A stretch of DNA of 62,949 nucleotides, counting the filler, from Rhabdomonas costata (lineage: Eukaryota): the NCBI GenBank assembly GCA_019059605.1. It is 47 parts of 47 records of this genome, joined end to end, with 100 filler letters (N's around TTAATTAATTAA, not from the genome) between each part and the next. Parts side by side here need not be neighbours in the genome. Positions count along the whole stretch, not along the records: positions 10,737 to 11,978 come from JAHMHO010022230.1; 46 more parts are not named here. The stretch is one strand, 5' to 3'. Shown one piece after another: positions 10,188-62,949 of this stretch. Under the pieces are notes generated by a model. That model was not told where the DNA came from and ran no database searches. It was given only the letters and a program-made list of their open reading frames with translations. The translations under genes and the position numbers were made by a program. Position 1 is the stretch's first letter; each line of letters starts with the position of its first letter.

Positions 10188-10764
10188 GTATTGGGGGGGG
10201 GGGGCTCTGTTGACCGGCTGTGTGCCTTTGTCTTGCGTCGTGAAGCTCTCAGTGTGGATGGCCCAGTGTTGAGCGTGCACGGGCAAGCAGGAGGAGATCA
10301 AGCCAAGATCGAATCTCAATGTACGAACAACAGCATCCGAAATTCCGAAGCAACTCCGAGAGGTTGCGCGTGCGGGGACTCACAATTAAGAGAGGCTGTC
10401 TGAACTTCTTCATCCTTTCAGCGTCCCAGATTCTGCCCATTCCAACCGGGGCACTGCGGGGCTGGCGGAGCCCACACTGCAGTCAGCCGTGCTGTGTCAG
10501 CGCACTGCTCTCACCCTCTCCAGAGAGGCCGAATGATGGGGGTCGGGTTACCTAGTGGGGTAGCTGTCGGAAACCGAAACCTCACTTATGAGTTATGTGC
10601 GAGAGTATCAGGGAAGTGTGCTTTTGCACCCTGTATNNNNNNNNNNNNNNNNNNNNNNNNNNNNNNNNNNNNNNNNNNNNTTAATTAATTAANNNNNNNN
10701 NNNNNNNNNNNNNNNNNNNNNNNNNNNNNNNNNNNNTGTTGTTGGGTATTGGGTATTCTGTCTC

Positions 10765-11568
10765 TCGTCACTCCCCGCTACACGGGTCGTTCCTCGTTCC
10801 TGGGTCGTCACTTTGCTCGAGTCCCTCGCTTCGTTCCTCCTGACGTCACTCCCTTCACTGCGTTCCGGTCGTTCCTCTTCATACGTTCTATTGATCACGG
10901 TTCGTCACTCGCTACACGCTCGTTCCTCTCGACGTCAGGATTCTCGGTGCCTCGAATCCTTCCTCTGATGCTGGTTCCACTCCCCGGCATAAGCCGGTAC
11001 GTGTCACCCTACCTGCGGTGCCAGAGGGGTTAAAGAGTGGGGGGGATTCGAGAGGACGTGAGAATCCCGACAGTGGAGTTATTTGCTGGTCGTGATGACT
11101 CAGTGCCTTCGTCATCCCTCCCTAAATGCATGATGCCTCGGTCTCTCCGCCACCATAAGGTGCCTACGAGACCTCAGGGTGTATTGGGGGTTCTTGATGT
11201 CGTCGATGCTCCTTCGTCGCATCTCCTCCTAAATGCATGAAGAGAGAAGAAAAATTCCTTGTCGGTCGTCACTGCGTTCCTCCCTCCTAGATGCGTTGTT
11301 CAGTCGCTCCCCGCTATGCGGTACGCTCCTTCACTCCTACTCGCTACTCGCTACGCTCGTGTCTTCTTGTCGGCATTCACTGCGTTCATGCCTCCTTCTA
11401 ATACAGAAGAAGATGCTTAACGTCGTCGCTACGCTCCTCCTTCTATCCCCACTCACTGCGTTTCGTGGGGCCCCTAGAAGAAGAAGAAGATGGTCGTATG
11501 CTCGTACCTCGCATACTCCCAAGATGCAGTGGTTCGGGCATTCCACCGCTACGCGCTTCCATGCCTAG
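10765..11568 (-). repeat. Array of structured DNA hairpins with tandem G-A mismatches and GNA triloops
   Basis: Recurrent plus-strand cores TC-xy-TNC-y'x'-TC (minus strand GA-stem-GNA-stem-GA), many inside different perfect outer stems. See findings for coordinates. Confidence 0.85.
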
Positions 11569-13463
11569 AGTACTATAATATCACGGTAGCGCCAGCATGG
11601 TACTTCTACAAAATCTTCAGAAAGGCAATTAAGTAGTAATATAGTAGTAGTAATATAAAAGCGCAATTGGAAAGGCATGTATCACAAATTGGACTGGTTC
11701 CTGCGAGCGGTACGCCCACATTGCCACACCTTGAGTCGTACCAGTGCTGCTGCTGGTGGTGGTGGTGGTGGTGGCATCTTGGTGCCTGTCGCTCTCAAGA
11801 AAAGCCCGTACGCCAAACAAAAGCACAGAAAACAGCCAAAGGGACATTGGCCCTTGATACCGGCGGCCACCGCCGCAATTACAGCGATGGTCTCAGAAAG
11901 AAGAGCCTGGCCACAAAGCGCAAGAAGCCCGAAGCAGAAGAACTACATAAGCAGCGAATGGTCGACAGCACCACAAAANNNNNNNNNNNNNNNNNNNNNN
12001 NNNNNNNNNNNNNNNNNNNNNNTTAATTAATTAANNNNNNNNNNNNNNNNNNNNNNNNNNNNNNNNNNNNNNNNNNNNGGGGGGGGGTTGGAAGAAGGCA
12101 GAGGCCGGGTTGCAGGCCCTAGTCCGTGGCAAGGCCGGACACCTGGAGAAGGTGTACCGGTTCTGCCTGGAGAACTATGTTCCCGTTTGAGCTGTGTGTG
12201 CCGTGCGGTTCATTTTGTTGCTGCATCAGCTTCCTGTGTTTGGGATGGGGAGTAATGTTGACGATTTGTGGGCGTGGTAATAGATTTTGAGTCGAAATCA
12301 GCCCTTTCTATCTTGTGCCGTGACGATCCAAGTTTGTGACAAATGCCCTGAGGTGTGGTGTGCGTGCAGTGAAAAGTGAAATGGCCACTGCAGCCCATGC
12401 GCTTCTCAGGAATCTCTCTCTGCCTTTAACTGATTTTTTGTTGAGGAGCACGAGCGTCACTGGACAATGGAAGTACCACTGAATGTTCTCGATCCCATTT
12501 GCGTTGCGTGAGTTGGGATCTGTTGGAGCTGGCATTATTTAGAAAGCCGTGGCGCAAGACTTGGCGCTGTCTGGGAGACTGTGGGTGACGCTTCTTCTTA
12601 TTCTTTTTCTCTGGCCACCACTGCTTCATCAGACTGGCGTCTGTCCGTGGTACACGCCTGTCCAACTCCCACGCATATTTTCATTGCACTGGTTTGCTCT
12701 GATGAATGATTGCATTTGTTTTGTAGGAGTGCTCAGCTTTCCTTGCTTATCTCGGTGCCATCACCGTCGCCATGCTCAGGCTTTTTCTGCATTCACTATT
12801 CGATTAGGTAAAATCCCGAAGAACGTCGTACGACACCGTGAGAATGACGTTCTTTGTAACGAGATTTGTCTTTTCACAACCCATCATGAACCCTGAAGCC
12901 TTCCTACGTTTACAAGCAGTGTTAATCAGAGAACGACCAAAGTAAGGTTGTCCGTTGTCTTGCGGCTGCTCAGTAGTGATGCTTCGCTCCCGGGGGGAAA
13001 AGGGGGCTTAACGGTTAAACTGAGCAACCGGCAATCCGGAACGGTCTTGTGGGATACCTCGGCGGCCGCGCGCTGCCGGTTCTGCAAACAAGGCGCGCCA
13101 CGGCCACCCATAGTCGACGCGGACTTCGTGCAACTGCCCACCTTTACTCGACCATCTGCCGACCGCGCGGCCGGGGCGCAACAAGTGCAATCCCAGGCCG
13201 CCACGCTTACGCGCACAAACCTGCCTTTCCGCCACGGGCATTCTTGCTGGCCCATTTCTCCCCCCAATTTGGCCGCGTCCTCCTTATCGGCATGAAAAAC
13301 GTGTTCCCAACACACCACAANNNNNNNNNNNNNNNNNNNNNNNNNNNNNNNNNNNNNNNNNNNNTTAATTAATTAANNNNNNNNNNNNNNNNNNNNNNNN
13401 NNNNNNNNNNNNNNNNNNNNTGTGGTTGTTCTGCGTGTGTGTGTGTGTGTGTGTTGTTTGCAG

Positions 13464-26740: not shown

Positions 26741-27092
26741 NNNNNNNNNNNNNNNNNNNNNNNNNNNNNNNNNNNNNNNNNNNNTTAATTAATTAANNNN
26801 NNNNNNNNNNNNNNNNNNNNNNNNNNNNNNNNNNNNNNNNGTGTGGGTGTTATTTTCCTAAAGGGGTTGGGCAGGGTGTTCCACTGCCCCTTCGATATTT
26901 TCGACCATTTAACGGTGTTAAATGTTTGACGCCCGGTGTAAGGAGCGGATGCAGGAGGGTTGCTGTTTTATTAGAATGACGAAGCTACCCCTTCACGTCG
27001 AATTAAGTTGGTTTTCGTGCAAAGGTGAGTCTGTCGAGCAGAACTGCGCTGGATATGTCGTAATGTCATGGACCTGTCTATCCTCGTTTTAG

Positions 27093-27352
27093 CCGGGTAT
27101 GAGGTGAAGACCATCGGGGACAGCTTCTTCGTCGCCTTTGGGGACCCCAACGAGGCCATCCGCTTCGCGGTGCACCTGCAGCAGGAGATGCTGCTGGCGC
27201 CGTGGCCGGCTTCCTTGCTGGCCCTTCCGGAGTGTGCGGAGGAGCGCAGCGCCACCACAGGGCGACTGCTGTGGCGCGGGATGAGAGTGCGGGTTGGGGT
27301 GCACGTTGGGATAGCCCGACTAGAGATCAACCGCGAGACTTTGAAGGTTGAC
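27093..27352 (+). CDS. Class III adenylate cyclase catalytic-domain exon (euglenozoan receptor-AC/fungal-like type)
   Basis: GYEVKTIGDSFFVAF...A.HLQ..ML.APWP...LLWRGMRVRVGVHVG. AG at 27091-27092 and GT at 27353. Confidence 0.95.
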
Positions 27353-27404
27353 GTGTGTGTGTGTGTGTGTGTGTGCTTGCATGCGCGCGTGCGCGCGCGC
27401 GCGC
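27353..27404. repeat. (GT)n then (GC)n alternating purine-pyrimidine tract starting at a splice donor
   Basis: GT repeats at 27353-27375, then GC/GT repeats to 27404. Confidence 0.9.
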
Positions 27405-30400
27405 TTTGTCAGGGAGAGTCAACGAGGGCCTGCCTGATTTCTCAGCAAGGGTTCTCTTGCATGTACATCGATTACATTCCAAAAACCGCATTGGATGCAT
27501 AGAAGTCGGGCAGATCAACCTCCCCTCCCAGACCACCACTGAATTCTGGAGTCCCCGCCGAGCCCCCAAGATGCCAATTCCTGGTATGCCATCGCACTAC
27601 AGGCGTTTCGTTAGGGTAAGCCGTCTGTCAACCCTCCCTCCCCTGCATTTGCTTTTTATTGGATGTGTTTTTGCATTCTTGAGCAAATAAAAGCGATGCA
27701 TGGCGTTTCCGATCGTCGCATGCACTTCTTCCCACGTATGACCGCAGAGCCAGAACCCTGTGGGGGCAAACTGCACTGACTCGACAATGGGTGGGGCGTT
27801 TTTCTCGACCCCTGAGGGCCCTGTTGTTAGCCAGTGGCCAGCTTGCCACCGTGGAGCCCATGCCCCACACTTTACGCGGCACACAGAAGTCCACCTGGCA
27901 AGGAACTATCAGAGAATCCGGACGTCCACTTCGCATCGCACAGCGGACGTCATACCCTGCCCATATGCACATCACAGGTAGCGCTGGCTGCACGCGCTCA
28001 ATACGCCCGTGCATCCCCAAGTACACGAGTACAGAAGACAGGGGATCACCAGAAGACTAATACATCACCACCACCCCCCACANNNNNNNNNNNNNNNNNN
28101 NNNNNNNNNNNNNNNNNNNNNNNNNNTTAATTAATTAANNNNNNNNNNNNNNNNNNNNNNNNNNNNNNNNNNNNNNNNNNNNGGTGGGGCCACTACTTTG
28201 GTACAGTTTGCGCTTGGTTTTTTGTGGAACTTTGGGTTGCATGTTCTGTCAGGTTCTTTTGGGGCTTATTTCCGGTGCATTCCACCTTTTGTGGAGTGTA
28301 TTATATGTGCATAGTCTACTGTATAGATGCACACGAATTTATTGATTGTATGAATCTCCCACTGTGGGAGCAGCGAAGGCTGCTGAAAGTATCCTGCCGC
28401 GTTTTTGCTCCCGCTGGAAGCCAAAGCACATCTGTTTTTTTGGCAGCGTGGAGCCGCTGTCCCCGTATTTTGGTGCCTACCACTGAGTGATGATTCAGGC
28501 TATGTCGATTTTGGTATCCCCTGCCATTGGCCCCCAGCCCTTGCTAATTAGACTGATTTCGGATTCTGCTTTTTGAATCAGTGCCAAGCATGTGCTGTCC
28601 GTTTATTGACTGCAGCTGCCATGAGCACAACTGGGAAGCCGAGGGAAAGATGGGTGCTTCCAGACAACGTGGCCCCAGGAGCGCTGATGTCTGGGAAATC
28701 CACCTAACCAATCTAACCACCGTGTGCTCGGAAAGCAACCTTGCTCGTTCGCTTTGTGTGCTTTCTGACGGTCTCGGGGTCCTGCGCCGTGAACCCTTGG
28801 TCCTCAGCCGTGTAAACGTCATTGTGGCAATGGTTCGAGGAGCTTGCCCCTATCCGACTGGTGCGCAAATTTCGCTACCTGTCCCGCATTTTCCGGATGA
28901 CCTTAATTAATGGAATAAGGGTTCCTTGAAAAGGGCGCCACGTGTGCCCCATGCCGAGAGCGTTCTGGCCCTGCGATCGATGGGTTTGCGTCCCTGCCAT
29001 CCGGGCGCCCGAAAGCCGCGCACGCAAGAAAAGCAGCGGGTGGCGGCAGGGAGAAGGCAGAGGCACGCCCAGAAACACACCCACAACCACCTTGCCAAAA
29101 AGGCGGCGGGAGGGACCTGCACAGGGACAAGCCCTGGCCACTCCCTGTTTTCCGAGCCGCTTCCCTTGCATATTAGGGTGTTTTTTGTTGCCGGAGGCTG
29201 GTTTTTATATCGGACACCCATCTGCAAAAGCCTGTTTGCTCTCCTCGCCCTTTTGGGTTGTCAAACGCTTATTGAAAACAACATTGCCCACCACATTACT
29301 GCCATAGCGTGCCCACCATTCTTATTCCCATTCATTTCCATCCGTCTCCGCCCTCCATCTCCTTCGTTTGCCCTCGCCTAACCACCCTTTTGGCCCAACC
29401 CGCCATGGAGCAATCCCCCACAACNNNNNNNNNNNNNNNNNNNNNNNNNNNNNNNNNNNNNNNNNNNNTTAATTAATTAANNNNNNNNNNNNNNNNNNNN
29501 NNNNNNNNNNNNNNNNNNNNNNNNGTGGGTGGGGGGCGAGAAGAACAGGCTGTCGGCAAGTTACAGGGGTGAGATGTCCAGGAGGACAATATCGCGCGGC
29601 ATAGCATTTTGAATACCAGTGGGCGGATAATTCGTATTGGCAGTTCTGCGGTTGATCCTGCAGAAGATGAATGGGGCACGCCAACGGACCAAGACCACTA
29701 ACTCAAAAACTGCTACTCGAATCGATCAATGACAAATGGTCCGCCTATTGGGAGGAAAAGAGTCAAATAATAATTTAAGCCGAGAGAGGCAGACACACAT
29801 GCTCCGCAGCCGCAGTGCTCCCCACCCACCACTTACAAGCTTGATTCACCACCCACTAAGCAGCACCTGCCCACGCGGTGTCCCGCACCAGATACTAACC
29901 AACCGGGCCACCGGACGTTAATTGCGAAGCGTACAACACTCACACTCACGTTTTCTACGCACATGCACAAGCTGAAGACCGCACCGACAGCAAGGCCAGG
30001 TCCAGCCTGGGCACTCCATCCCATGTACCCCAGAGCAGCATGTTGAAGCACCTGAGCTTCTAAAGGCCGCCCCTTCGCAGGGCCACCACCCGATTCCCAG
30101 GCTTACCCCGCACAGGGTTGTGCCCCGGGAAGCCACTGCAGCGACAGATGGCCCCACTTCCATGATATCATCAGCACCATGTACGAGGCGTACACCCCAA
30201 GCAGCCAGAAGGCCAGCCGACGAGGGAGCAACCCACCGTACTTCACCGCGACGAACTGTCGCACCCCACAAACCAACCTCGACCCATTAGCCCGCCCTCA
30301 CTACAACCTCCCTCACCTTTCGCCAATGGCATCTGTGGGGCGAGAAGTAGTTCATTTCCAGTTTTGGCTGGAATGCTTTCTGAACGAGGGATTGAGTTCA

Positions 30401-47099: not shown

Positions 47100-47287
47100 C
47101 GCCCCCGCCCCACCCGAAAAAATGCATAGGACCTCCACAGTTTATTTGTCAGCAATGTCGGCCCATTCACAGATCCCGAGGGATTTTGTGATCAGACTTT
47201 TTGCTCCTTCACTTTGCTTGGGGTATGCAGCAGCTTTGTCGTTTCTCCGCGGCTTTTGTTGAAAGTTGTTTTTTTTTGGTACCGGGG

Positions 47288-48019
47288 ATGCTTCGGAACG
47301 CGGGTTTCGGAGCTCATGCAAAATTGGTTGCGGTGCAGCGCTGGGTGGAGCGGAAGCTGTGCACAGAGGCTGACTCTCCCGCAGTCAGGCGCCAGAAAGT
47401 CTCTCTGGCGTTCTTCCTCTGCGGTGGATCTCCTTGGCCTCTGACAGTTGGGGTGCTGGCGTGGTGGACTCAGCGATTCGAAAATTCTGCCGCTGCCCAC
47501 CTCTCGATATCGTACCACTTATGGGTGACGCTGATGATTATTGTCCTGGCGGGGGTGCTGTTTCGAACCAAGTCTCTGAACCTGTCCCGTGCGTCCTATA
47601 TGGTTCTCACCTGGCTGGAAGTCCCCGTGTCCCTGATCGCCTGTGGGGGTTTCCAGTACAACTCCTTCGTCGGAGCGGTGGCAATCTTTAACATTTTTCT
47701 TGGTCTTACACTCTACGAAGGGTTCGCCGTTCCGATCGCCTCCGTGGTAATGTCCTGCATCACGCTTCTGTGCTGGGCAGTGGTGGAGTGCGTGGTTGGG
47801 CTACCCCTGCCATACATCTACAACCGGGAGGCCTTGGTGATCTGGCATGCCGTGGAGTGCGTAGGGGGCCTGCCGTTTCTTCTCTTATCGCTGTGGTACA
47901 CCCTGTTCACGATGCGGAAAGAGATAATGGAGCACAGCGTGGCGGAGGCGCAAGCGGTGGCCGCAGCGGAGGCCCGGGGCGCGTTTGTAGCTCGGATGTC
48001 ACACGAGATCCGCTCCCCG
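47288..48019 (+). CDS. Membrane-bound sensor histidine kinase, N-terminal exon up to the H-box
   Basis: About six hydrophobic helices, then a helical linker and AEARGAFVARMSHEIRSP (HisKA H-box of hybrid kinases), followed by a GT donor at 48020. Start position uncertain. Confidence 0.88.
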
Positions 48020-49363
48020 GTACGTCTTGTTTTGTTTGGTCCGTTTTCGTATTTCTCTTTTCAGCAGTTTTCGGCTCTAGAGGTCACCTATCCGTATCCG
48101 TGACTTGAACTGTTCTTCTTTTTTGTGGAGTTTCCCTCTTATATAATGTTTCGCATCGTTCTGGATTGATGTGTGTGTGTTTCACCACAACCATCCTGCG
48201 NNNNNNNNNNNNNNNNNNNNNNNNNNNNNNNNNNNNNNNNNNNNTTAATTAATTAANNNNNNNNNNNNNNNNNNNNNNNNNNNNNNNNNNNNNNNNNNNN
48301 TTGGGGCTCTTCCTTCTCCCTCTGTTGGATAGTGTGCACTGGATGAGCTTCAGCGGTGCTTTTTGGAGGTCACCGATGGGGTCATTGGTCTCGGGACGCC
48401 CCCCTCGGCCAGCGGTTTGGACCCGCAGTGGCTGTTCTTCTCGTGGCTGGGCGCTATCCCTGAGGTATGTGTGCGCGTGTGTGGCTCACACGGGCAGTGG
48501 TAATTTCGATGTTGGCTTAATTTCCGGATAGTGAGCAACCATTCTGCCGAGAGGTGCGGGCGCCTCATGAGCAGAGGAGCAATGGCGAGAGCTTCTTTTC
48601 GTTTACCTCGCGCATGGGTCGTCATGTCTCGGGTGGGGGTGGGGTAAGGCGTGCCAGCAGCTCCACGGTGCGGTGCCCTCAACGGTGGTCTCTGTGGTGC
48701 ACTCCATGCTGCAGCGCGCGGCAAAGCCCGTGCTGGGTCACACCTGCGCCTGGCTCCACGCCGCAAGCCGCCAGGCAAATCCTTCCCCCGCCACTCCTCC
48801 TCTCCCTCTGTCCTCTCTCTTTCTCCTTAGTACTTACGAGTCGAATTAGTGTGGACGAGGCAGTCTGTCACCAAAGCCAACACTAGCGTTTTTAAACGTT
48901 TGGGTGGATACTCATAGCTACCAGTGGCACATGCACGCTCATCAGCACAGGCGCTCTCATCGCTGATGTGGGAAATGCTTTGTTCCCGTCCAGAGGATTG
49001 GGCTCTTCCTTCCTTTCCCTCCCTCTCCGCTCGCTCGCATGGCCTTCACCTGTGCAGGAGAGCTCGACCAACATGGTGGTTCATTCATCATCTTCCTCGT
49101 TCTAATTGCTAATCGGTGTTAACGCCTCTACTGCCTTGGGGCAAATACAAACACAGTTATTGTTCATCACAGTTTCGTGGTTGTCAAGGTTCATCAACCG
49201 CCAAAAAAAACGTGTCATTTCCTGCTTACACCATGCCACTTCCCAGCCTCACAGGCTCACAGTTGTCTGGGGCCCACCCAGCGCAGAGGCTCGCGTTCAT
49301 TTCCGCAGTGCATGGGCTCAGTCGGCTGCTCCGTGTAAAGGTGAGCGCGGGGACATCCGCAGA

Positions 49364-54180: not shown

Positions 54181-56343
54181 AAATGTCTTCGACTATCTCG
54201 ATTCCTACGCTCAGCAAATGCTCCCAGAGCCTTTCCTTTGAACGAAATTTACGAAACGGAGCAGCCGAGCCAGAGGCTCGTCCACACACTTTTCTCCTCC
54301 GGAATGCGAAGCATGACTTTCCACTTGCAGGCTAAGAACACGTCCACCAGGCTTTGAAACAATCTACCCAACAACGAACATTCCGCGGTTAAAGAAACTC
54401 CAATCGTACCGGTTTTTAGAAGAGACCCTTCTTGATGCATTCGGGGAGGGGGTGATTTCTTGCGCAGCTTTGGGTGTGTCTAGATGCAAGTTCGTTTGGG
54501 AGGGAGTACGTTGATCCATGCTGCGATGAAGGGCGTGCGGCTGGTGCACTACGCACGCCTTTGACACGGCGAAATCATCTCTCATAATTATGATGATGCT
54601 TTCCCAGCTATCCAAGCATGCGGATTACGTGGCCCAATGGAAGGTGTGTGTGTGGGGGGGTGATGCACCCAACACTTCGTAAGTTGACAAAGGCTCCCCA
54701 GCATACGTAAATCACACACCGCGATAACTCCGGAAGAGCCGGACCCTTCCACTTCCGAACTGCCTTCTTCCACTATGACTACTGCACCATTCTGACTTCA
54801 GGTGAACACAGGAAGGTGCACGAGGTTGCCCTCATCAACGATGTATCCGACAGAAGTCCATTCCGAACACCTCACTCTCCACCACAAACCAAACACACCC
54901 ACCACNNNNNNNNNNNNNNNNNNNNNNNNNNNNNNNNNNNNNNNNNNNNTTAATTAATTAANNNNNNNNNNNNNNNNNNNNNNNNNNNNNNNNNNNNNNN
55001 NNNNNACCACACGTAATTTGTTGAAGGCGAGGGCCGTCCAAGCGGCACCCCCGGGAAAGACCAAGAAAAGGGAACCATTGCGGCCAACCGTAATTGCTGG
55101 GCGAGTGTCCCGAGCGCAGCAACGCAGGCAGCGCGACAGTTCTGACGACATAGGGACGCCGGCCAGTTTTTGGGCAGACGAGGTTTCCCTGTGCATTCTT
55201 TCCCAAATGAATGACTCCTAACCAACGGTTGCAGCATAGTGCACCCCCTAATCAAAAGAAAAACTCTCCAGATTCCAATAGTGTCCAAACGTGTGGAAAA
55301 GGGGGGAAATATGAGCTGTAAAATCATCCAAGAAAAGTGTCCGCCAAGGGTCCCACGACGCTGTGGTTATGCAGCAGTGGGAAGAGTCAAATTTTAAATG
55401 GTGTCAGCAGAGGCAGAGAGTGAACACAATCTGGGGGGCTTACACACCAGCGGCAGGCGGCAAGAATGAATCAGTGCTCTGGCAGGGCGACGAAGCTCCG
55501 CCCTAAAGCAAAAGACAAAGGGGGAAGGGCAGGGCGGGAAGTTGACACGAATGATTTGGCTTTTCCTCATGTTTCAAATTTCTCAAGGCGCCTGAAAGCA
55601 CCATCGCCGAGCCATTCGAGCTCATGAAACAAATAGTCCTGCAGAAATTGGGGTTCAAAGAATTCTGAAATGGAAATCAAAAGGGAAATGGGAACAACAA
55701 CTTTAGGGGCGAAAGGAGAGAATAGTAAATGTGACCAGTGAGCCTGCGCGGACATTCGCAAAGCATCCCATATCATCAAAAGATGCAGATATCCGCTCAG
55801 AGATCCGCCCCCGACACTGGCCTTCCCCCGCACGCGGTTTAGCCAAAAAACGTCCTCGACTTTCGACTTGGAACTCAAGGGCTCTCCAGCTCCGAAGGCC
55901 TTCCGGTAGCGTTTGCAAGTTTCAAAAGAATTAACCATGGATCAGTACAGTTAATGAATCAATGGGTCGTCAATGAATCAAAGGGGTGTCGAAGCTTTCT
56001 TTTTAGTTTGATCGAGGAATTACAAGTGGAGCCTACGTCTTCCGCATATTTTTCCCCTAGCAGGTTTCAGCAAACAGAAGTGGCACGCCTACCCCAAACA
56101 TATCGTCCTCAGAAAGCTCGGCGATGATATCGCCTTCAGCATTGAACAACAGACGTGGGGGCCGCGGGGGGTCCGACCGCCCAAGAGGAGGACCCGGACG
56201 AACAGCACCTGAGTATCGCCAAAGCACCCCAATCCCTTCACAANNNNNNNNNNNNNNNNNNNNNNNNNNNNNNNNNNNNNNNNNNNNTTAATTAATTAAN
56301 NNNNNNNNNNNNNNNNNNNNNNNNNNNNNNNNNNNNNNNNNNN

Positions 56344-58501: not shown

Positions 58502-59489
58502 GTGTGTATGTGCGCAGCACAAGAAGTGGTGGCAATGCAACCACAGAGGGACAGAGGGATGTGCTCGCACGGCAATGCGTGAAGAAACGGATGCTGTCCA
58601 TTCACCATCCGAAGAAAAAGCTCAGGTTCACAACTCAACCGGATTAGAGGAAAGGCAGCACGGTACGTTGTGCTCCGAGAAATCACCCGCTGTGTGTGTC
58701 TAAGGGAGTGTGAGTGATGCGGGCGTGAAGGGGCCAAAGCAGTAGTGTAAACTCGGGTGCGCCAAAGTACCGTGAACAAGGGGCGTGCGGCTCAGCACAG
58801 CATACACACACAGACACACACCACGCGACAGTGCGCTGTGCTTCGAGAATGCACGCGCTGCACAGGTTTGAGGGAGCAGTGAATGATGGGGGCGTAAAGG
58901 CCAGAGCGCAGTGTGAAAATGCATCANNNNNNNNNNNNNNNNNNNNNNNNNNNNNNNNNNNNNNNNNNNNTTAATTAATTAANNNNNNNNNNNNNNNNNN
59001 NNNNNNNNNNNNNNNNNNNNNNNNNNGTGGTGGGTGTGTTTGGTGTGTGTGTGCATATGAGAAACGTTCATCGCCTGTGCTGCAGTTGGATAGTGAACAT
59101 TATCCAACCCTGGATAGTGGCACCAACCCTGGATAGTGGGGAGGGGGTCACCAAACAGACGGAACCCTCGCTTTTCACGGAGGTCAACTGAAGGTGGTGA
59201 GCATACACACTACGGCCCCCAACTGCGCCACAAGGTCCACCGTGCGAGCACCCCGCCAGCGCCCCAGCGCGGTGCATGCAGCAGGAATTCCCATTCCCGT
59301 CTCCCGTGTTTCGATCGTGTTTCGTTGACTACCGCGCACTCGTCAGAATTGACGCGCGAAGGATATATCGATTGATGACCGTTTTCTTCCATTGCGTAAA
59401 GCCCGAATTTTCCATGCCATGTATTCTGTCTACCAAGAAAACGCTTCTGTGAGACACTGGCGAGAACAAGCGGAGCATGGAGCGTCAAC

Positions 59490-60227
59490 CTGGAAGTGCC
59501 TCTCAAAGGCCCTGGGGCCGAAGTAGGAGTAGTTGGAGCAGATCTCGCACTTATACTCGATACCCAGCCCGTGCAGCTTGTACAGCCAGTAAGGAATGGG
59601 ACGGCCATCCCACCTTGGCGGAGCAATCCATCGGATCGAGAGCTCGACCGCAAACCTCACACCGGGAGCTTCATATTCATGCCCGAAGTTGGGTATGCGT
59701 GCGTTTAGCCGTTGCTTTTGGGGACCTGCAACTCCTGGGGACCAGGATCGTTTTCCCTTTCCATGTGGGAATTTCTTCTTGGCTCGTTGCCATTGCATTG
59801 CGTCTCTGCCAACGGGCGAGACTTGTCTTATGTTGCAGGATATAGTGAGCTACAACCTCACCTGCACTTCATCTACATTTGCTACCGCTCCGAGCTTCAG
59901 GGATAGAAGTATACAGAGTTGGTTTGCACAGGAGCAGTAAAGAGGTAGGCTGCTTCCGAATTAACCTGAGACACTGTCTTCATGACCGGTGACCTAAAAA
60001 TAAATGGACATGCGCAAAATGATGATGGCGAACATATCAAGAGGTCCAGGATGCTGTTAGGATGCCCACACTTAGGATGGGAAGAGGAGAAGCAAGTGCC
60101 TAATCCCACCCACCCTGAATACACACCCCAGCGGCAGGTCGAGGGGGTTGTCGCGAATGGTGGGGAGGTCGTCATCCACCTCTTCCCCTTCAGGGGTCTT
60201 CTTGACCAGCGCATCCCTGGTCATCGC
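59490..60227 (-). CDS. SF3A3: Splicing factor 3A subunit 3 (PRP9), two exons
   Basis: Exon 60227-60127 (...DNPLDLPLG) joined by a GT-AG intron to exon 59613-59490 ([41 protein letters not shown]), the near-invariant SF3A3 zinc-finger region. Confidence 0.97.
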
Positions 60228-62483
60228 CTAGAAGTTTGGGGATTCGGGGGGGCGAAACCAGCGCGCCNNNNNNNNNNNNNNNNNNNNNNNNNNNNNNNNN
60301 NNNNNNNNNNNTTAATTAATTAANNNNNNNNNNNNNNNNNNNNNNNNNNNNNNNNNNNNNNNNNNNNGTGTTGGGTGTGTGTGGTGGGTTGGGGAATAGG
60401 AAGGATGGAGTAGGGACAGGGTGCATCGTTTTCCTGCGAATCCACGGCTTTCGCTAAGCGCGCATCCCTCACGTTCCCTCCGAACGACCCTGCTCTCACC
60501 CATTTGTAATCCTCTTTCCTTACTTGTTTCCTCTCCTCGCTGCCATTCTCTGTCTTACCCACTTCCTTCCCGCTATTCAGCTATTCTTTCCTCGAACAAA
60601 TTCGTCCTCCTTTGCACACATCGTTTTCACCGTTGGTTGCTCTGCGCCTTCGTTTGCAGATCTCCTGCACTCTGCTTGTGGAATGCCGAGGCATTGCAGG
60701 ACGCGTGCAAGAACTGTTCCGCCGACCGAAGGAGCGAAAAGTCGTTCTGTGTTCCTGCATTTGAGTGCGCGTCTCGCGCACTGTGTGTGTGTGTGTGCGT
60801 GCGTGTGTGTGCATATTTGGTTGTGTTGGGATGGTGAATGTACATAAAACACGCGAATTCGAATGACGGCGGTTGTGTGCTTTCTTTTTTCCAGGTTTTC
60901 CGCAACCCACAATACTTTGCCTTCCAGCGGAGTTTCGTATACGTTTGGCTCACCGCCTTTCCTTTCGCTTCTGTGTTTGGTGATCGTTCATCAAGAAATG
61001 GACAGGAATCAATGCGACGCGAGGAGTGCACGTGTGTGTCACTTTTGTGTGGATGTGTGCTGTGAAGTGTGCCCTTGCGAGGTGCACGAATTACGTGCTG
61101 TGCCTGGGGATCGAATGCTGTCGATCCTCTGCTGTGGGACCCAATCTCTGTAATACCGGTTGTTAGCGGGGGGACGAACACTTGTTCTCGAGGAAGGAGA
61201 AAACCCGCTCCGACATCTGGTCGAGCTGGAGGGAAGAGGACGAGGGAACCGTTGGGGACGGCTTGCGGAGGGACCTCTTTTTGCACTTAGTGCTGTATTA
61301 TGCCAGAATGATCATAATAAGAAATGCATAGGATGAGTTCCGCGCACACGTTTATATTTTTTGGATTGGTTTTCATTCCTACAGTTGAGTTACCCACCCC
61401 CACCCTTCACAGTTCCGTCTCCTCTACAAGTTCTCGTTGCTGTGTCGTGTGGGTGAGGGAACAGTGTGCTCTTGGGGCGTACCAAGTCCATGGAGGGAAA
61501 AGGCAAGCAAGGGAAGCGTTTCCCGTTTTCCAGAGGTTAGGGACGAAACATGGAACGCGTCATCTCAAGAAAGGCATTCCTCCGAAGCACCACCAAAAAA
61601 CAAAAAACNNNNNNNNNNNNNNNNNNNNNNNNNNNNNNNNNNNNNNNNNNNNTTAATTAATTAANNNNNNNNNNNNNNNNNNNNNNNNNNNNNNNNNNNN
61701 NNNNNNNNGGGGTGGTGTGGGATGGGGTTGCGCTTGCTCTCGAGGAAAAGTCATTGGTCTCATATGAGGTAAAGGGTGATGTGCATGTGTTTCGAGAAGA
61801 GGATATCATATATCAAGGCTAGCTCCACCCGGAAACTCACTGACTGCCCGATTTTGTTCCGCTCAGCCCTAGACCATGTGTTCTGCTCTAACAAAAGGTT
61901 TACGGTTTACGGTGGAGCTTTATGCACTGAGTGAACAAGCTCTCCAAATAAAAGTACCCAACTTCTGCAAAACAGAGAAAAGAGCAAGTTGACAGAGCAA
62001 GGACGGGTCAGGTAGGAAGGCATCAAACCTTCCCACAGTAGATGTCCGGCACAGAGTAGTACACCCGCCACTTCTTTGCAGCCTTTCGAATCTACAAATG
62101 AAAGAGTGTCATGGAAGCCCAATAAAAAAGAAGAACCTTGTCAGCCCACCAGAGAAGCCATCCAGCGCACACCCCGCACATGCAAAGCACAGCCAGGCCT
62201 TCGGATGTCAAACGGTGGTCTGCAGCACTGTCGTTGGACAGTTCCCAAACATGACCCGGGACTCAAATTTTTTTTTTGCATAAAACCCGTGGACTTTTGG
62301 AAACCCCTCGGTGACCAGAATGCAGAAAGCTCGCTGAAAAAGCTCATTAGCTATCAGTGCCCCGTGGCGTGCCCAGTGGTCCTCCTCACTCGGACGTTCG
62401 TCAATTTTGCAAGTGCAGGTGCCAAATGGCCACATTTTTATCAAACTTTACACCTGAGGGGTGATCTTTCAACTTAGAACAAC

Positions 62484-62876
62484 CTGCTCCGGAGTACCCG
62501 TCAGCCCCACAAACTTCGGGGAGTAATCGGCGACGAAGTCCTTCACCTTCGCGCAGCTGTCCCGCGCAGGGTCAATCGAGATGAACACGGGCAGCAGGGT
62601 GTCCGTGCCTCCGTAGTGGTTGTCCACCCGGGACACCACCTCGGTCATCCGAGACATCTCCGCGGGGCACATCTCTGGGCAGTTCGTGAACCCGAAGTAC
62701 ATCAGGGTCCACCGCCCGCGAAACGTGGCCTGGGTCACGGGCTGGCCCTCACAGTCCACCAGTGCGAAGGTCCCGCCCAGTGTCAGGGAGTCCGCAGGAG
62801 AAGACAACCCGCCCCTTGCCGCCACGGGTGTGCCTGGAGCAGCGGAGGGCATGGTGTCGGGCTTACTGGTGGGTGC
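62484..62876 (-). CDS. SCO1: SCO1/SenC copper chaperone for cytochrome c oxidase, exon
   Basis: LGGTFALVD...YFGFTNCPEMCP (CxxxC)...PVFISIDPARD...FVGLTGTPEQ, followed by a GT donor at 62483. Confidence 0.95.
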
Positions 62877-62949
62877 CTTGCTGATTCAAAACAGAGAGAG
62901 AGTGTGTAAGTGAGGTGAAAGGGGTGAACTCTGGGTTGAGCAGCTGGAT

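Follow-up and report, generated by a model that had tools for sequence, protein, structure and literature searches.

What is a row of hairpins that share a shape but not a sequence, and whose genome does it come from? This question is raised by an unplaced contig of 1242 bases (JAHMHO010022230.1) in the Rhabdomonas costata assembly GCA_019059605.1, in which short hairpins built of Watson-Crick pairs and tandem G.A pairs follow one another to form an array. The contig occupies positions 10737-11978 of the 62,949-nucleotide stretch of DNA analysed here, hereafter the window (1-62949), which is made of 47 unplaced, size-sorted contigs of 1238-1244 bases each and is not one contiguous locus. Linkers of the form N44-TTAATTAATTAA-N44 separate the contigs, and bound the array contig on both sides. 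Since the array is confined to contig 10737-11978, sequence beyond those bounds provides no genomic context for it, and features seeming to cross a spacer are artefacts of concatenation. A preliminary description of the locus had proposed that the structure was selected at the level of single-stranded DNA (ssDNA), and that the block could be an origin or terminus of a mobile or extrachromosomal element, or else organellar DNA. We report here that the same hairpin cores recur in prokaryotes, and we lean towards the view that the array exemplifies a kind of strand-asymmetric mini-hairpin repeat that is widespread and resembles the repetitive extragenic palindromic (REP) sequences, and for which we found neither a name nor a description in the literature.

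A strand-specific array of GA-zipper hairpins

Hairpins were searched for with a strict scanner, which accepted Watson-Crick pairs and tandem GA/GA tiers, and required a loop of 3-5 nt, at least 4 Watson-Crick pairs and at least 1 tier. It found 11 non-overlapping hairpins on the minus strand of 10737-11568, 8 of them with at least 2 tiers, and none on the plus strand of the array contig. In 1000 dinucleotide-preserving shuffles, a check that the preliminary description had itself suggested, the mean was 0.605 hairpins (standard deviation 0.78, maximum 4), and for hairpins with at least 2 tiers it was 0.025 (maximum 2). On the 92 strands of the other 46 contigs, the same scan gave 25 matches, all with 4-5 Watson-Crick pairs and 24 of them single-tier. 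The array is therefore real, strongly non-random and strand-specific, far beyond what chance would produce.

When the rule was relaxed by hand, so as to permit 3x3 purine loops, single G.A oppositions and one bulge, the count rose to at least 19 hairpins across 10764-11566, or about 800 bases. These are units of 15-40 nt with distinct stems, spaced by 30-110 nt, and the GA strand is the minus strand in 18 of the 19, the single inverted copy lying at 11043-11068. The seven perfect-stem hairpins that had been described at 10937-10960, 11043-11068 (the inverted one), 11094-11116, 11205-11223, 11372-11392, 11447-11470 and 11496-11516 are all present where they had been placed. The multi-tier zippers also exist, slightly longer than first reported, at 10764-10796, 10842-10878, 10904-10926, 11261-11287 and 11422-11440.

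Each hairpin is a ladder of 1-7 Watson-Crick pairs alternating with tandem G.A/A.G tiers, in which 5'-GA-3' stands opposite 5'-GA-3'. GNA triloops close 11 of the 19 hairpins (GCA in 5, GTA in 4, GAA and GGA in 1 each), and in 8 of these 11 the closing pair is 5'-C...G-3'. A strict core of the form GA-NN-GNA-N'N'-GA, with complementary inner pairs, occurs 6 times on the minus strand of the array and only 3 times elsewhere in the window, each time without an outer stem. Arms in the left part of the array show a 7-nt period (GAGGAAC opposite GAGTGAC), and Tandem Repeats Finder (TRF) detects short heptad and triplet runs only, not the array as a whole.

The tips recall a known structure. GCGTAGC is present three times, with GCGTAGC(G) at minus-strand positions 11554, 11434 and 11356, and ACGCAGT four times, all on the minus strand only. 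By sequence, the array cores are thus the DNA mini-hairpin motif GCGNAGC or its A-T variant. According to PMC13037366, mini-hairpins of the GCGNAGC type resist nucleases, are poorly bound by SSB, and are far stabler as DNA than as RNA.

Folding energies agree with the orientation of the motif. With each hairpin folded alone, the minus strand was the stabler one for 17 of the 19 hairpins, with DNA and RNA parameters alike; the exceptions were the inverted copy and one tie per parameter set. For the whole array, z-scores with DNA parameters were -1.53 for the minus strand and -0.56 for the plus strand, as compared to -2.47 and -0.14 with RNA parameters. The proposal of an ssDNA-level structure thus holds in part: one strand only is structured, the purine-rich minus strand, and its loops and cores are those of DNA mini-hairpins, while the origin, terminus or organellar identity attached to the proposal is not supported (see below).

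The array is composed of diverged duplicated units

Alignment of the minus strand within 11340-11490 reveals two copies of a unit of about 75 nt, which we call Ua (hairpins H3 and H4, numbered from the right end) and Ub (H5 and H6). In both, (CTT)n is followed by TAG, a hairpin with the ACGCAGT core, a purine linker and a hairpin with the GCGTAGC core, and mean column identity between the two is 79%. The first hairpin has CCCCAC/GTGGGG as its outer stem in Ua, as against GGCAT/ATGCC in Ub, so that 3 of the 6 pairs have been altered on both sides and one has been swapped for a G.A opposition. The units of H9 and H11 also have a 5' flank of about 16 nt in common. The array is composed of diverged duplicated units, and the claim that its hairpins keep a common architecture while differing in sequence is borne out by both the scan and this alignment, stems varying by compensatory changes.

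Relatives in bacteria, archaea and viruses

Two cores that neighbour each other twice in the array were used as a search pattern, ACGCAGTGA followed 10-25 nt further on by GAGCGTAGCGA. It matched 105 metagenome stretches, 87 stretches of prokaryote genomes, where about 17 matches are expected under uniform composition, and 2 viral contigs. In the flanks of these relatives, the cores lie between complementary arms, more GA tiers are often present, the hairpins often alternate within head-to-tail arrays, and such complementary arms indicate that the matches are not due to chance. The exact 19-mer of hairpin H4 was present in 114 prokaryote-genome stretches (about 4 expected) and 1 viral stretch; its hosts include Chloroflexota, Patescibacteria, Proteobacteria, Myxococcota, Actinomycetota, Omnitrophota, Halobacteria and a Woesearchaeote. 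Hundreds of contigs from bacteria and archaea, and a few from viruses, thus share the cores and their architecture, a point absent from the preliminary description, and the block is not a one-off element.

Pairing beyond the cores was examined next to these counts. Among the first 194 loci, 136 of 563 inner-paired cores had perfect outer stems of at least 4 bp. At least 3 further Watson-Crick pairs flanked the core in 54 of 151 and 95 of 327 distinct copies (36% and 29%), as against 3.6% and 4.5% in flank-swapped controls. In individual genomes, the 13-base core outnumbered a reversed-pattern control by 140 to 0, 122 to 8, 48 to 10, 118 to 48 and 61 to 25.

In the reverse direction, a covariance model (R1) trained on 109 prokaryotic copies only was run over the whole window with filters off; E-values are rough, as the calibration was shortened. 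Pairs imposed by the selection of copies are uninformative in its training alignment, and the first unselected pair is formed in 76 of the 109 copies. The top 8 matches, and 10 of the 11 best, fell on the minus strand of the array (E 5.7e-7, 7.7e-5, 0.0023 and 0.036, the rest weaker), the best match outside the array in 62.9 kb having an E of 0.85. Four matches had E < 0.05, all of them on the array minus strand.

Copies in prokaryotes usually occupy non-coding DNA and are rare between divergent genes (4 and 5 cases). Between tandem genes, with open reading frames (ORFs) taken as crude stop-to-stop frames, the two orientations were near-equal, 24 for '> H >' and 18 for '< H <'. An all-against-all comparison of the 2942 ORFs lying within 1.5 kb of copies in the 194 loci revealed no family present in more than 5 loci, and the largest cluster, of 5 loci, was the translated repeat itself. 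Rfam 15 gave no match at gathering score in the window, and only two tRNAs in 20 prokaryote loci. One sub-threshold match, to RF02912 (aminoglycoside leader / attI site), was seen at 11370-11435 on the minus strand, with 19.7 bits for a gathering score of 56 (E 0.3), and is probably due to chance.

Full-text literature searches with core and flank strings, supplementary files being outside their scope, returned primers and unrelated sequences only. Searches on sheared G-A pairs, triloops and repeats returned structural and repeat-expansion papers, and no account of such genomic arrays; the linker string gave nothing useful.

Some observations on the relatives deserve separate mention. In many Chloroflexota, Patescibacteria and Proteobacteria (loci L200, L213, L217, L227, L235, L256 and others), the 19-mer is embedded in a conserved sequence, gtcattgcga...gaagcaatc. 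Next comes a second hairpin, which uses the 3' arm again (gcaatc.. / ..gattgc), so that two mutually exclusive folds are possible. In a fragmented metagenome-assembled genome (MAG) of 6.9 Mb (G009), dozens of the 122 matches to the core are no more than about 50 bases away from where a contig starts, and GA-zipper mini-hairpin repeats appear to break short-read assemblies. In the actinobacteria G006 and G016, the core is carried by two distinct compound elements, one consisting of three mini-hairpin tips in a row, the other of a hairpin of about 60 nt with conserved ends cccggcctggactga...gggaaggccggga.

Orientation of the repeats relative to replication

The orientation of copies was compared with the direction of replication in two complete chromosomes of one actinobacterial genus (G006 and G016), the terminus being assumed to lie opposite dnaA. 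In G006, where dnaA is at 541-1026, the GA strand was '+' in 8 copies and '-' in 15 over the first half of the chromosome, and '+' in 18 and '-' in 7 over the second half, which places it on the lagging-strand sequence in 33 of 48 copies (p 0.013). In G016, a strand switch near 2.2 Mb had been noticed before the position of dnaA (2,198,672) was known, and the GA strand was on the lagging strand in 29 of 41 copies. Pooled, 62 of 89 copies, about 70%, were in the lagging-strand orientation (binomial p 2.7e-4). Restricted to the recognisable tiered family, the proportions were 21/28 in G006, as counted by hand from the listing, and 10/13 in G016.

This bias runs opposite to what gene co-orientation or leading-strand G-richness would lead one to expect, and it points to a DNA-level process linked to replication. 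As described in PMC3310812, hairpin-forming repeats are lost when the strand forming the stabler hairpin is the lagging-strand template, and expand in the other polarity; the lagging-strand bias matches, by analogy, this polarity rule. A test of open frames was uninformative in G006, whose GC content is 70%, stop-free frames spanning nearly everything.

A sharp switch of orientation was seen in the haloarchaeal chromosome G004, where 7 '+' and 23 '-' cores are listed as far as 1.25 Mb, and 17 '+' and 3 '-' at 1.3-3.3 Mb; this switch was left uncounted, as its boundary was picked after viewing the data.

A possible life as single-stranded DNA, and the points against it

The reading that we slightly favour, an array belonging to a REP-like repeat class, calls for a way in which such repeats could persist. 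The class most likely acts, or merely persists and multiplies, as ssDNA during replication, if the predicted fold is correct. The relevant molecule would be ssDNA: upon replication, the GA strand would snap into very stable hairpins, which the TC strand cannot do. Copies with the GA strand as the newly made lagging strand would be kept or duplicated, and those in the opposite orientation would be lost. Arrays would then grow through local duplication or slippage, their stems drifting under the constraint of pairing, with GA tiers and GNA loops retained. The array would in this case be a selfish or structural repeat of the REP type, without dedicated function, unlike an origin, a gene or a regulatory RNA.

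Several results weigh against this picture. The mean difference between minus and plus strands of single hairpins was small with the ViennaRNA DNA parameters (-0.8 kcal/mol) and larger with RNA parameters (-2.5 kcal/mol), so that thermodynamic asymmetry alone is no argument for DNA over RNA; the nearest-neighbour DNA set does not include the special stability of GCGNAGC-type motifs. For the 19-mer, strict extension did not rise above the control (4/114 vs 1.6%), a bulged A interrupting the next tier. Three bacterial genomes and one MAG showed no excess of the core over the reversed control (3 vs 3, 20 vs 15, 9 vs 15 and 3 vs 3). In pooled loci, the GA strand was more often sense to the upstream gene, by 63 to 35 and 38 to 22, which a role at the RNA level predicts as well. 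The replication bias comes from two congeners in which neighbouring copies are not independent and the terminus was assumed, and the tiered family of G006, collapsed by hand to loci, gives 16/23. Finally, a 22-mer of the right flank of the array had no match in prokaryote-genome and viral contigs, and the linker motif of the window had 3 genome matches, where about 17 are expected by chance, and no viral one.

If the class exists as we describe it, the GCGNAGC mini-hairpin combined with sheared G.A tiers, among the stablest small folds that DNA chemistry has revealed, would be a common building block of repeat DNA in many genomes, beyond a few phage origins. It would also offer a natural system for following the survival and multiplication of one-strand hairpins in replication, a question that the orientation bias makes testable. 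In practice, such arrays would break short-read assemblies, create spurious ORFs and mimic novel elements in assemblies of eukaryotes.

Provenance of the contig

Since the relatives are found in prokaryotes and viruses, the contig may not be eukaryotic at all. It could carry the same repeat class and be a bacterial, archaeal or viral fragment, from a contaminant, a symbiont, prey or a giant virus. All relatives found are indeed prokaryotic or viral, no such array is present on the other 46 contigs of the window, and the array sits at a contig end, as do many copies in G009, so that such repeats would yield small orphan contigs. On the other side, with the other 46 contigs as training set, a third-order Markov model scored the 410-base right flank as host-like, at the 35th percentile of held-out host segments; just 8% of 373 prokaryote segments of similar GC content score as high, for a likelihood ratio of only about 2. 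The 1242 bases contain no credible ORF or Pfam match, and do contain (TGG)7 and (CTT)n microsatellites. The neighbouring contigs that were inspected did not look prokaryotic either (they include exon-sized SF3a60/Prp9 and SCO1 fragments), and the absence or chance-level frequency of the right-flank 22-mer and linker motif in the prokaryote and viral collections also speaks against a foreign source. Altogether, we think that the contig is probably that of the host, an organelle or integrated virus included, and that foreign DNA is a serious contender with somewhat less than an even chance.

A stronger statement is that the contig is truly the eukaryote's own, whether nuclear, extrachromosomal or an endogenous viral insert. 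The class would then be found in bacteria, archaea, viruses and eukaryotes alike; lagging-strand replication would generate and orient it, Okazaki-fragment hairpins driving duplication, and it would have been overlooked because its members share a shape and a tip of 7-11 bases, not an alignable sequence. We regard this reading as speculative, and rather doubtful at present. How much the locus is worth depends on its provenance: if eukaryotic, it would add a new domain to the range of the class, whereas a contaminant would be one more prokaryotic copy.

DNA or RNA

We consider it unlikely that the element works as RNA, in which case the minus strand would be transcribed and its hairpins could stabilise 3' ends, serve as processing sites or bind proteins. 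In RNA, too, tandem sheared G.A pairs are stable. Folded as RNA, the minus strand again shows the zipper pattern, with the best of the four z-scores (-2.47) and 0 of 20 shuffles as good, and the energy difference between strands, hairpin by hairpin, is larger for RNA than for DNA. The avoidance of divergent intergenic regions (4 and 5 cases) and the co-orientation of the upstream gene (63/98 and 38/60) would fit as well. However, most loops are GNA triloops closed by C-G, a form that is hyperstable specifically in DNA, rather than GNRA or UNCG tetraloops. According to PMC13037366, d(GCGAAGC) and d(GCGAAAGC) melt at 76.5 C, and r(GCGAAAGC) at 39 C. The near-equal orientations between tandem genes (24 vs 18), the replication-strand bias of about 70%, opposite to the prediction from gene co-orientation, and the lack of Rfam family matches in the window or the 20 prokaryote loci also argue against an RNA-level element.

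Replication signals, organellar DNA and chance

As for the replicon origin evoked in the preliminary description, we find it improbable that the array acts in cis as an ssDNA signal for a replicon or mobile element, be it a rolling-circle or primase-dependent origin, a substrate of an HUH nuclease or RAYT, or a set of attC-like sites. PMC13037366 does place mini-hairpins of the GCGNAGC type at the primase-dependent origins of phage G4 and ssiA, as well as at phage N4 hairpin promoters. Structure conserved while sequence varies is also what folded ssDNA substrates display, and the weak match to the attI family RF02912 (19.7 vs 56 bits, E 0.3) would go in the same direction. But the contig, which as first described has no cognate protein, indeed no detectable protein family, bears no Rep, HUH, primase or integrase gene, and no protein family recurs within 1.5 kb of copies in the 194 loci. 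A replicon origin would bring Rep, HUH or primase in cis and a single conserved nick or priming site; on the contig there are nineteen different hairpins in a row rather than one or two defined sites, with no loop motif conserved beyond GNA and no conserved nick-site loop, and 18 of the 19 share one orientation, unlike the inverted doublets of REPINs.

It is very improbable that the array is non-coding DNA of an organelle, or derives from such DNA copied into the nucleus. Mitochondria and plastids of many eukaryotes have hairpin-forming repeats in their genomes. Double and multiple tandem hairpins are among the well-known forms (PMC2800124), and the bacterial ancestry of organelles would suit prokaryotic relatives. 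Yet no organelle gene, tRNA or rRNA is found on the 1242 bases of the contig, its GC content of 53% and its microsatellites resemble those of neighbouring contigs, and the sponge elements described in PMC2800124 keep their stems and vary their loops, the reverse of the array.

A chance pattern in TC-rich low-complexity sequence, or an assembly artefact, to which the pyrimidine-rich plus strand and the short, unplaced contig might have pointed, has a negligible probability given shuffle maxima of 4 and 2 for 11 and 8 observed hairpins, and the recovery of the same hairpins by an independent model trained on other organisms.

Individual hairpins and the surrounding sequence

The hairpins are described here along the minus strand, on which all but H12 fold. 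H1 (11534-11566, found by hand) is GGCAT ... CGC GTA GCG ... ATGCC, with 5x5 purine-rich oppositions, and includes GCGTAGC. H2 (11491-11521, scan and covariance model) reads TGG[GA]GTATGC[GA]G GTA C[GA]GCATAC[GA]CCA, and is one of many ladders that extend beyond what the preliminary description had given. In the duplicated units, H3 (11447-11470, covariance model E 0.0023) is CCCCAC GA(A)AC GCA GT GA GTGGGG with a one-base bulge, and H4 (11422-11440, scan and covariance model), the 19-mer, is G[GA]G[GA]GC GTA GC[GA]C[GA]C. H5 (11369-11395), the best covariance match (E 5.7e-7), is G[GA]GGCAT[GA]AC GCA GT[GA]ATGCC[GA]C, and H6 (11346-11360, E 0.036), AC[GA]GC GTA GC[GA]GT, includes GCGTAGC; AGCGAGT heptads come after it, which TRF reports as plus-strand ACTCGCT x3.3 at 11333-11354.

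H7 (11303-11330, extended by hand) is CCGC ATA GCGG followed by a GTA/GGA loop, two Watson-Crick pairs and a GA tier. Scan and covariance model both recover H8 (11261-11287), G[GA]GG[GA]G[GA]AC GCA GT[GA]C[GA]CC[GA]C, and H9 (11199-11229), G[GA]G[GA]GATGC[GA]C GAA G[GA]GCATC[GA]C[GA]C. H10 (11140-11173) is an imperfect palindrome, GGTCTC...GAGACC, with a TTAT loop and no tandem GA tier, and H11 (11088-11122, covariance model E 7.7e-5) is GATGAC[GA]AG GCA CT[GA]GTCATC, with more purine oppositions outside. H12 (11043-11068), the only inverted copy, GGGATTC [GA...GA] GAATCCC, is matched by the covariance model on the plus strand with an E of 3.8.

Further on, H13 (10974-11011, extended by hand) is CCGGC TTAT GCCGG, then a GTA/GGA 3x3 purine-rich loop, three Watson-Crick pairs and one GA/GA tier. 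H14 (10934-10963, scan and covariance model), G[GA]AGGATTC[GA]G GCAC C[GA]GAATCCT[GA]C, has an outer stem of 7 bp. The strict scan yields the two-tier H15 (10904-10926), G[GA]AC[GA]GC GTGTA GC[GA]GT[GA]C, and the three-tier H19 (10764-10796), C[GA]G[GA]AC[GA]CCCG TGTAG CGGG[GA]GT[GA]C[GA]G, whose arms have the 7-nt period. Between them lie H16 (10884-10899), a weak one-tier hairpin, CGT[GA]T CAAT A[GA]ACG; H17 (10842-10878, by hand and RNA fold), a multi-tier zipper with core GAACGCAGTGA at 10855-10865, in which one single G.A opposition violates the strict rule; and H18 (10815-10829), CGAG GGA CTCG, a GNA triloop with flanking purine oppositions.

The array reaches almost to the left end of the contig (10737-10763), where TTGGGTA is repeated 2.3 times at 10742-10757. 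The right flank (11569-11978, about 410 bases) is free of the hairpin array; part of it is AT-rich, (TGG)7 lies at 11754-11774, and no gene can be recognised in it. A coding reading of the contig was rejected, its ORFs having no credible Pfam family: six-frame ORFs matched no family at E 0.1 or better, bar a meaningless 13-bit match, and a database search with the 111-aa ORF of the array found no relative. A BLAST search of the contig against plasmids and phages gave no match.

Elsewhere in the window, profile matches identified exon-sized fragments of SF3a60/Prp9 (59433-59849, minus strand, E 1.5e-21), SCO1/SenC (62472-62885, minus strand, E 9.8e-32) and a class III adenylate/guanylate cyclase domain (27029-27499, plus strand, E 1.4e-5) on neighbouring contigs, which indicates that the assembly is that of an intron-bearing eukaryote. 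The closest relatives found for the SCO1 fragment are at most 53% identical. A 303-aa open frame at 47192-48100 (+), with several hydrophobic segments, has no match in Pfam or in a database search; its C-terminal end, FVARMSHEIRSP, resembles the phospho-accepting box of histidine kinases. A lone hairpin on another contig, G[GA]ATGC GAA GCAT[GA]C at 54301-54317 (+), has the build of an array unit and is within the background rate of the scan. G runs of 10-14 at 10195-10208, inside a neighbouring contig, and 12079-12088, where another contig begins, are possibly artefacts of sequencing or assembly.

Comparison with known systems

In the tests that were run, the array qualified neither as a REP/RAYT element, nor as an organellar hairpin element, nor as a replicon origin. 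With the repetitive hairpin-forming and double-hairpin elements and GC clusters of mitochondria, it has in common to be non-coding, often tandem, associated with eukaryotes and without known function. Those elements have conserved perfect stems of 10-18 bp and variable loops (PMC2800124), whereas the array has variable stems and keeps its loops and GA tiers.

Integron attC sites and the ends of IS200/IS605 elements offer another likeness, as the shape of one folded strand would be recognised and non-Watson-Crick positions mark that strand. The comparison, made by genes only, shows the array to be without an integrase or TnpA on the contig, cassette genes between sites, or an identified conserved cleavage motif.

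REP, BIME and REPIN sequences, mobilised by RAYT, come closer. Like the array and its relatives, they are short, gene-less imperfect palindromes, multi-copy and clustered, mostly downstream of genes and rare between divergent ones, and strand-specific imperfections decide which strand folds. They differ in several respects: there is no RAYT on the contig, and no RAYT or other recurrent gene near copies in the 194 loci; REPINs are inverted doublets, while the array runs head-to-tail with 18 of 19 hairpins in one orientation; and the array conserves its GA tiers and tip, not its stem. REP sequences are lineage-specific, whereas the cores recur across many phyla and in archaea. A conserved GTAG-type tetranucleotide stands directly 5' of the palindrome in REPs and REPINs; in the listed array hairpins none was found at this place, GTAG being present only across the tip (CGTAGC).

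Hairpin-forming trinucleotide and minisatellite repeats, as presented in PMC3310812, share with the array a stable hairpin on one strand, growth by duplication and a dependence on the lagging template. Their pure short repeats contrast with array units that are hairpins of 15-40 nt with distinct stems, and the link to replication would here follow from the bias of about 70% in two bacterial genomes.

The nearest likeness in chemistry is to the DNA mini-hairpins d(GCGNAGC)/d(GCGNNAGC) of Hirao and colleagues, as reviewed in PMC13037366. GCGTAGC, three times, and the A-T variant ACGCAGT, four times, form the array tips, and both systems have a GNA triloop closed by a sheared G-A on a C-G pair, with one strand folding. 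The known cases are single motifs at phage and plasmid priming sites and N4 promoters, as compared to 19 in a row in the array. To this motif, likened through its letters, the array adds tandem GA/GA tiers, forming a ladder of predicted stability, and variable outer stems, in a build that is dispersed through cellular genomes.

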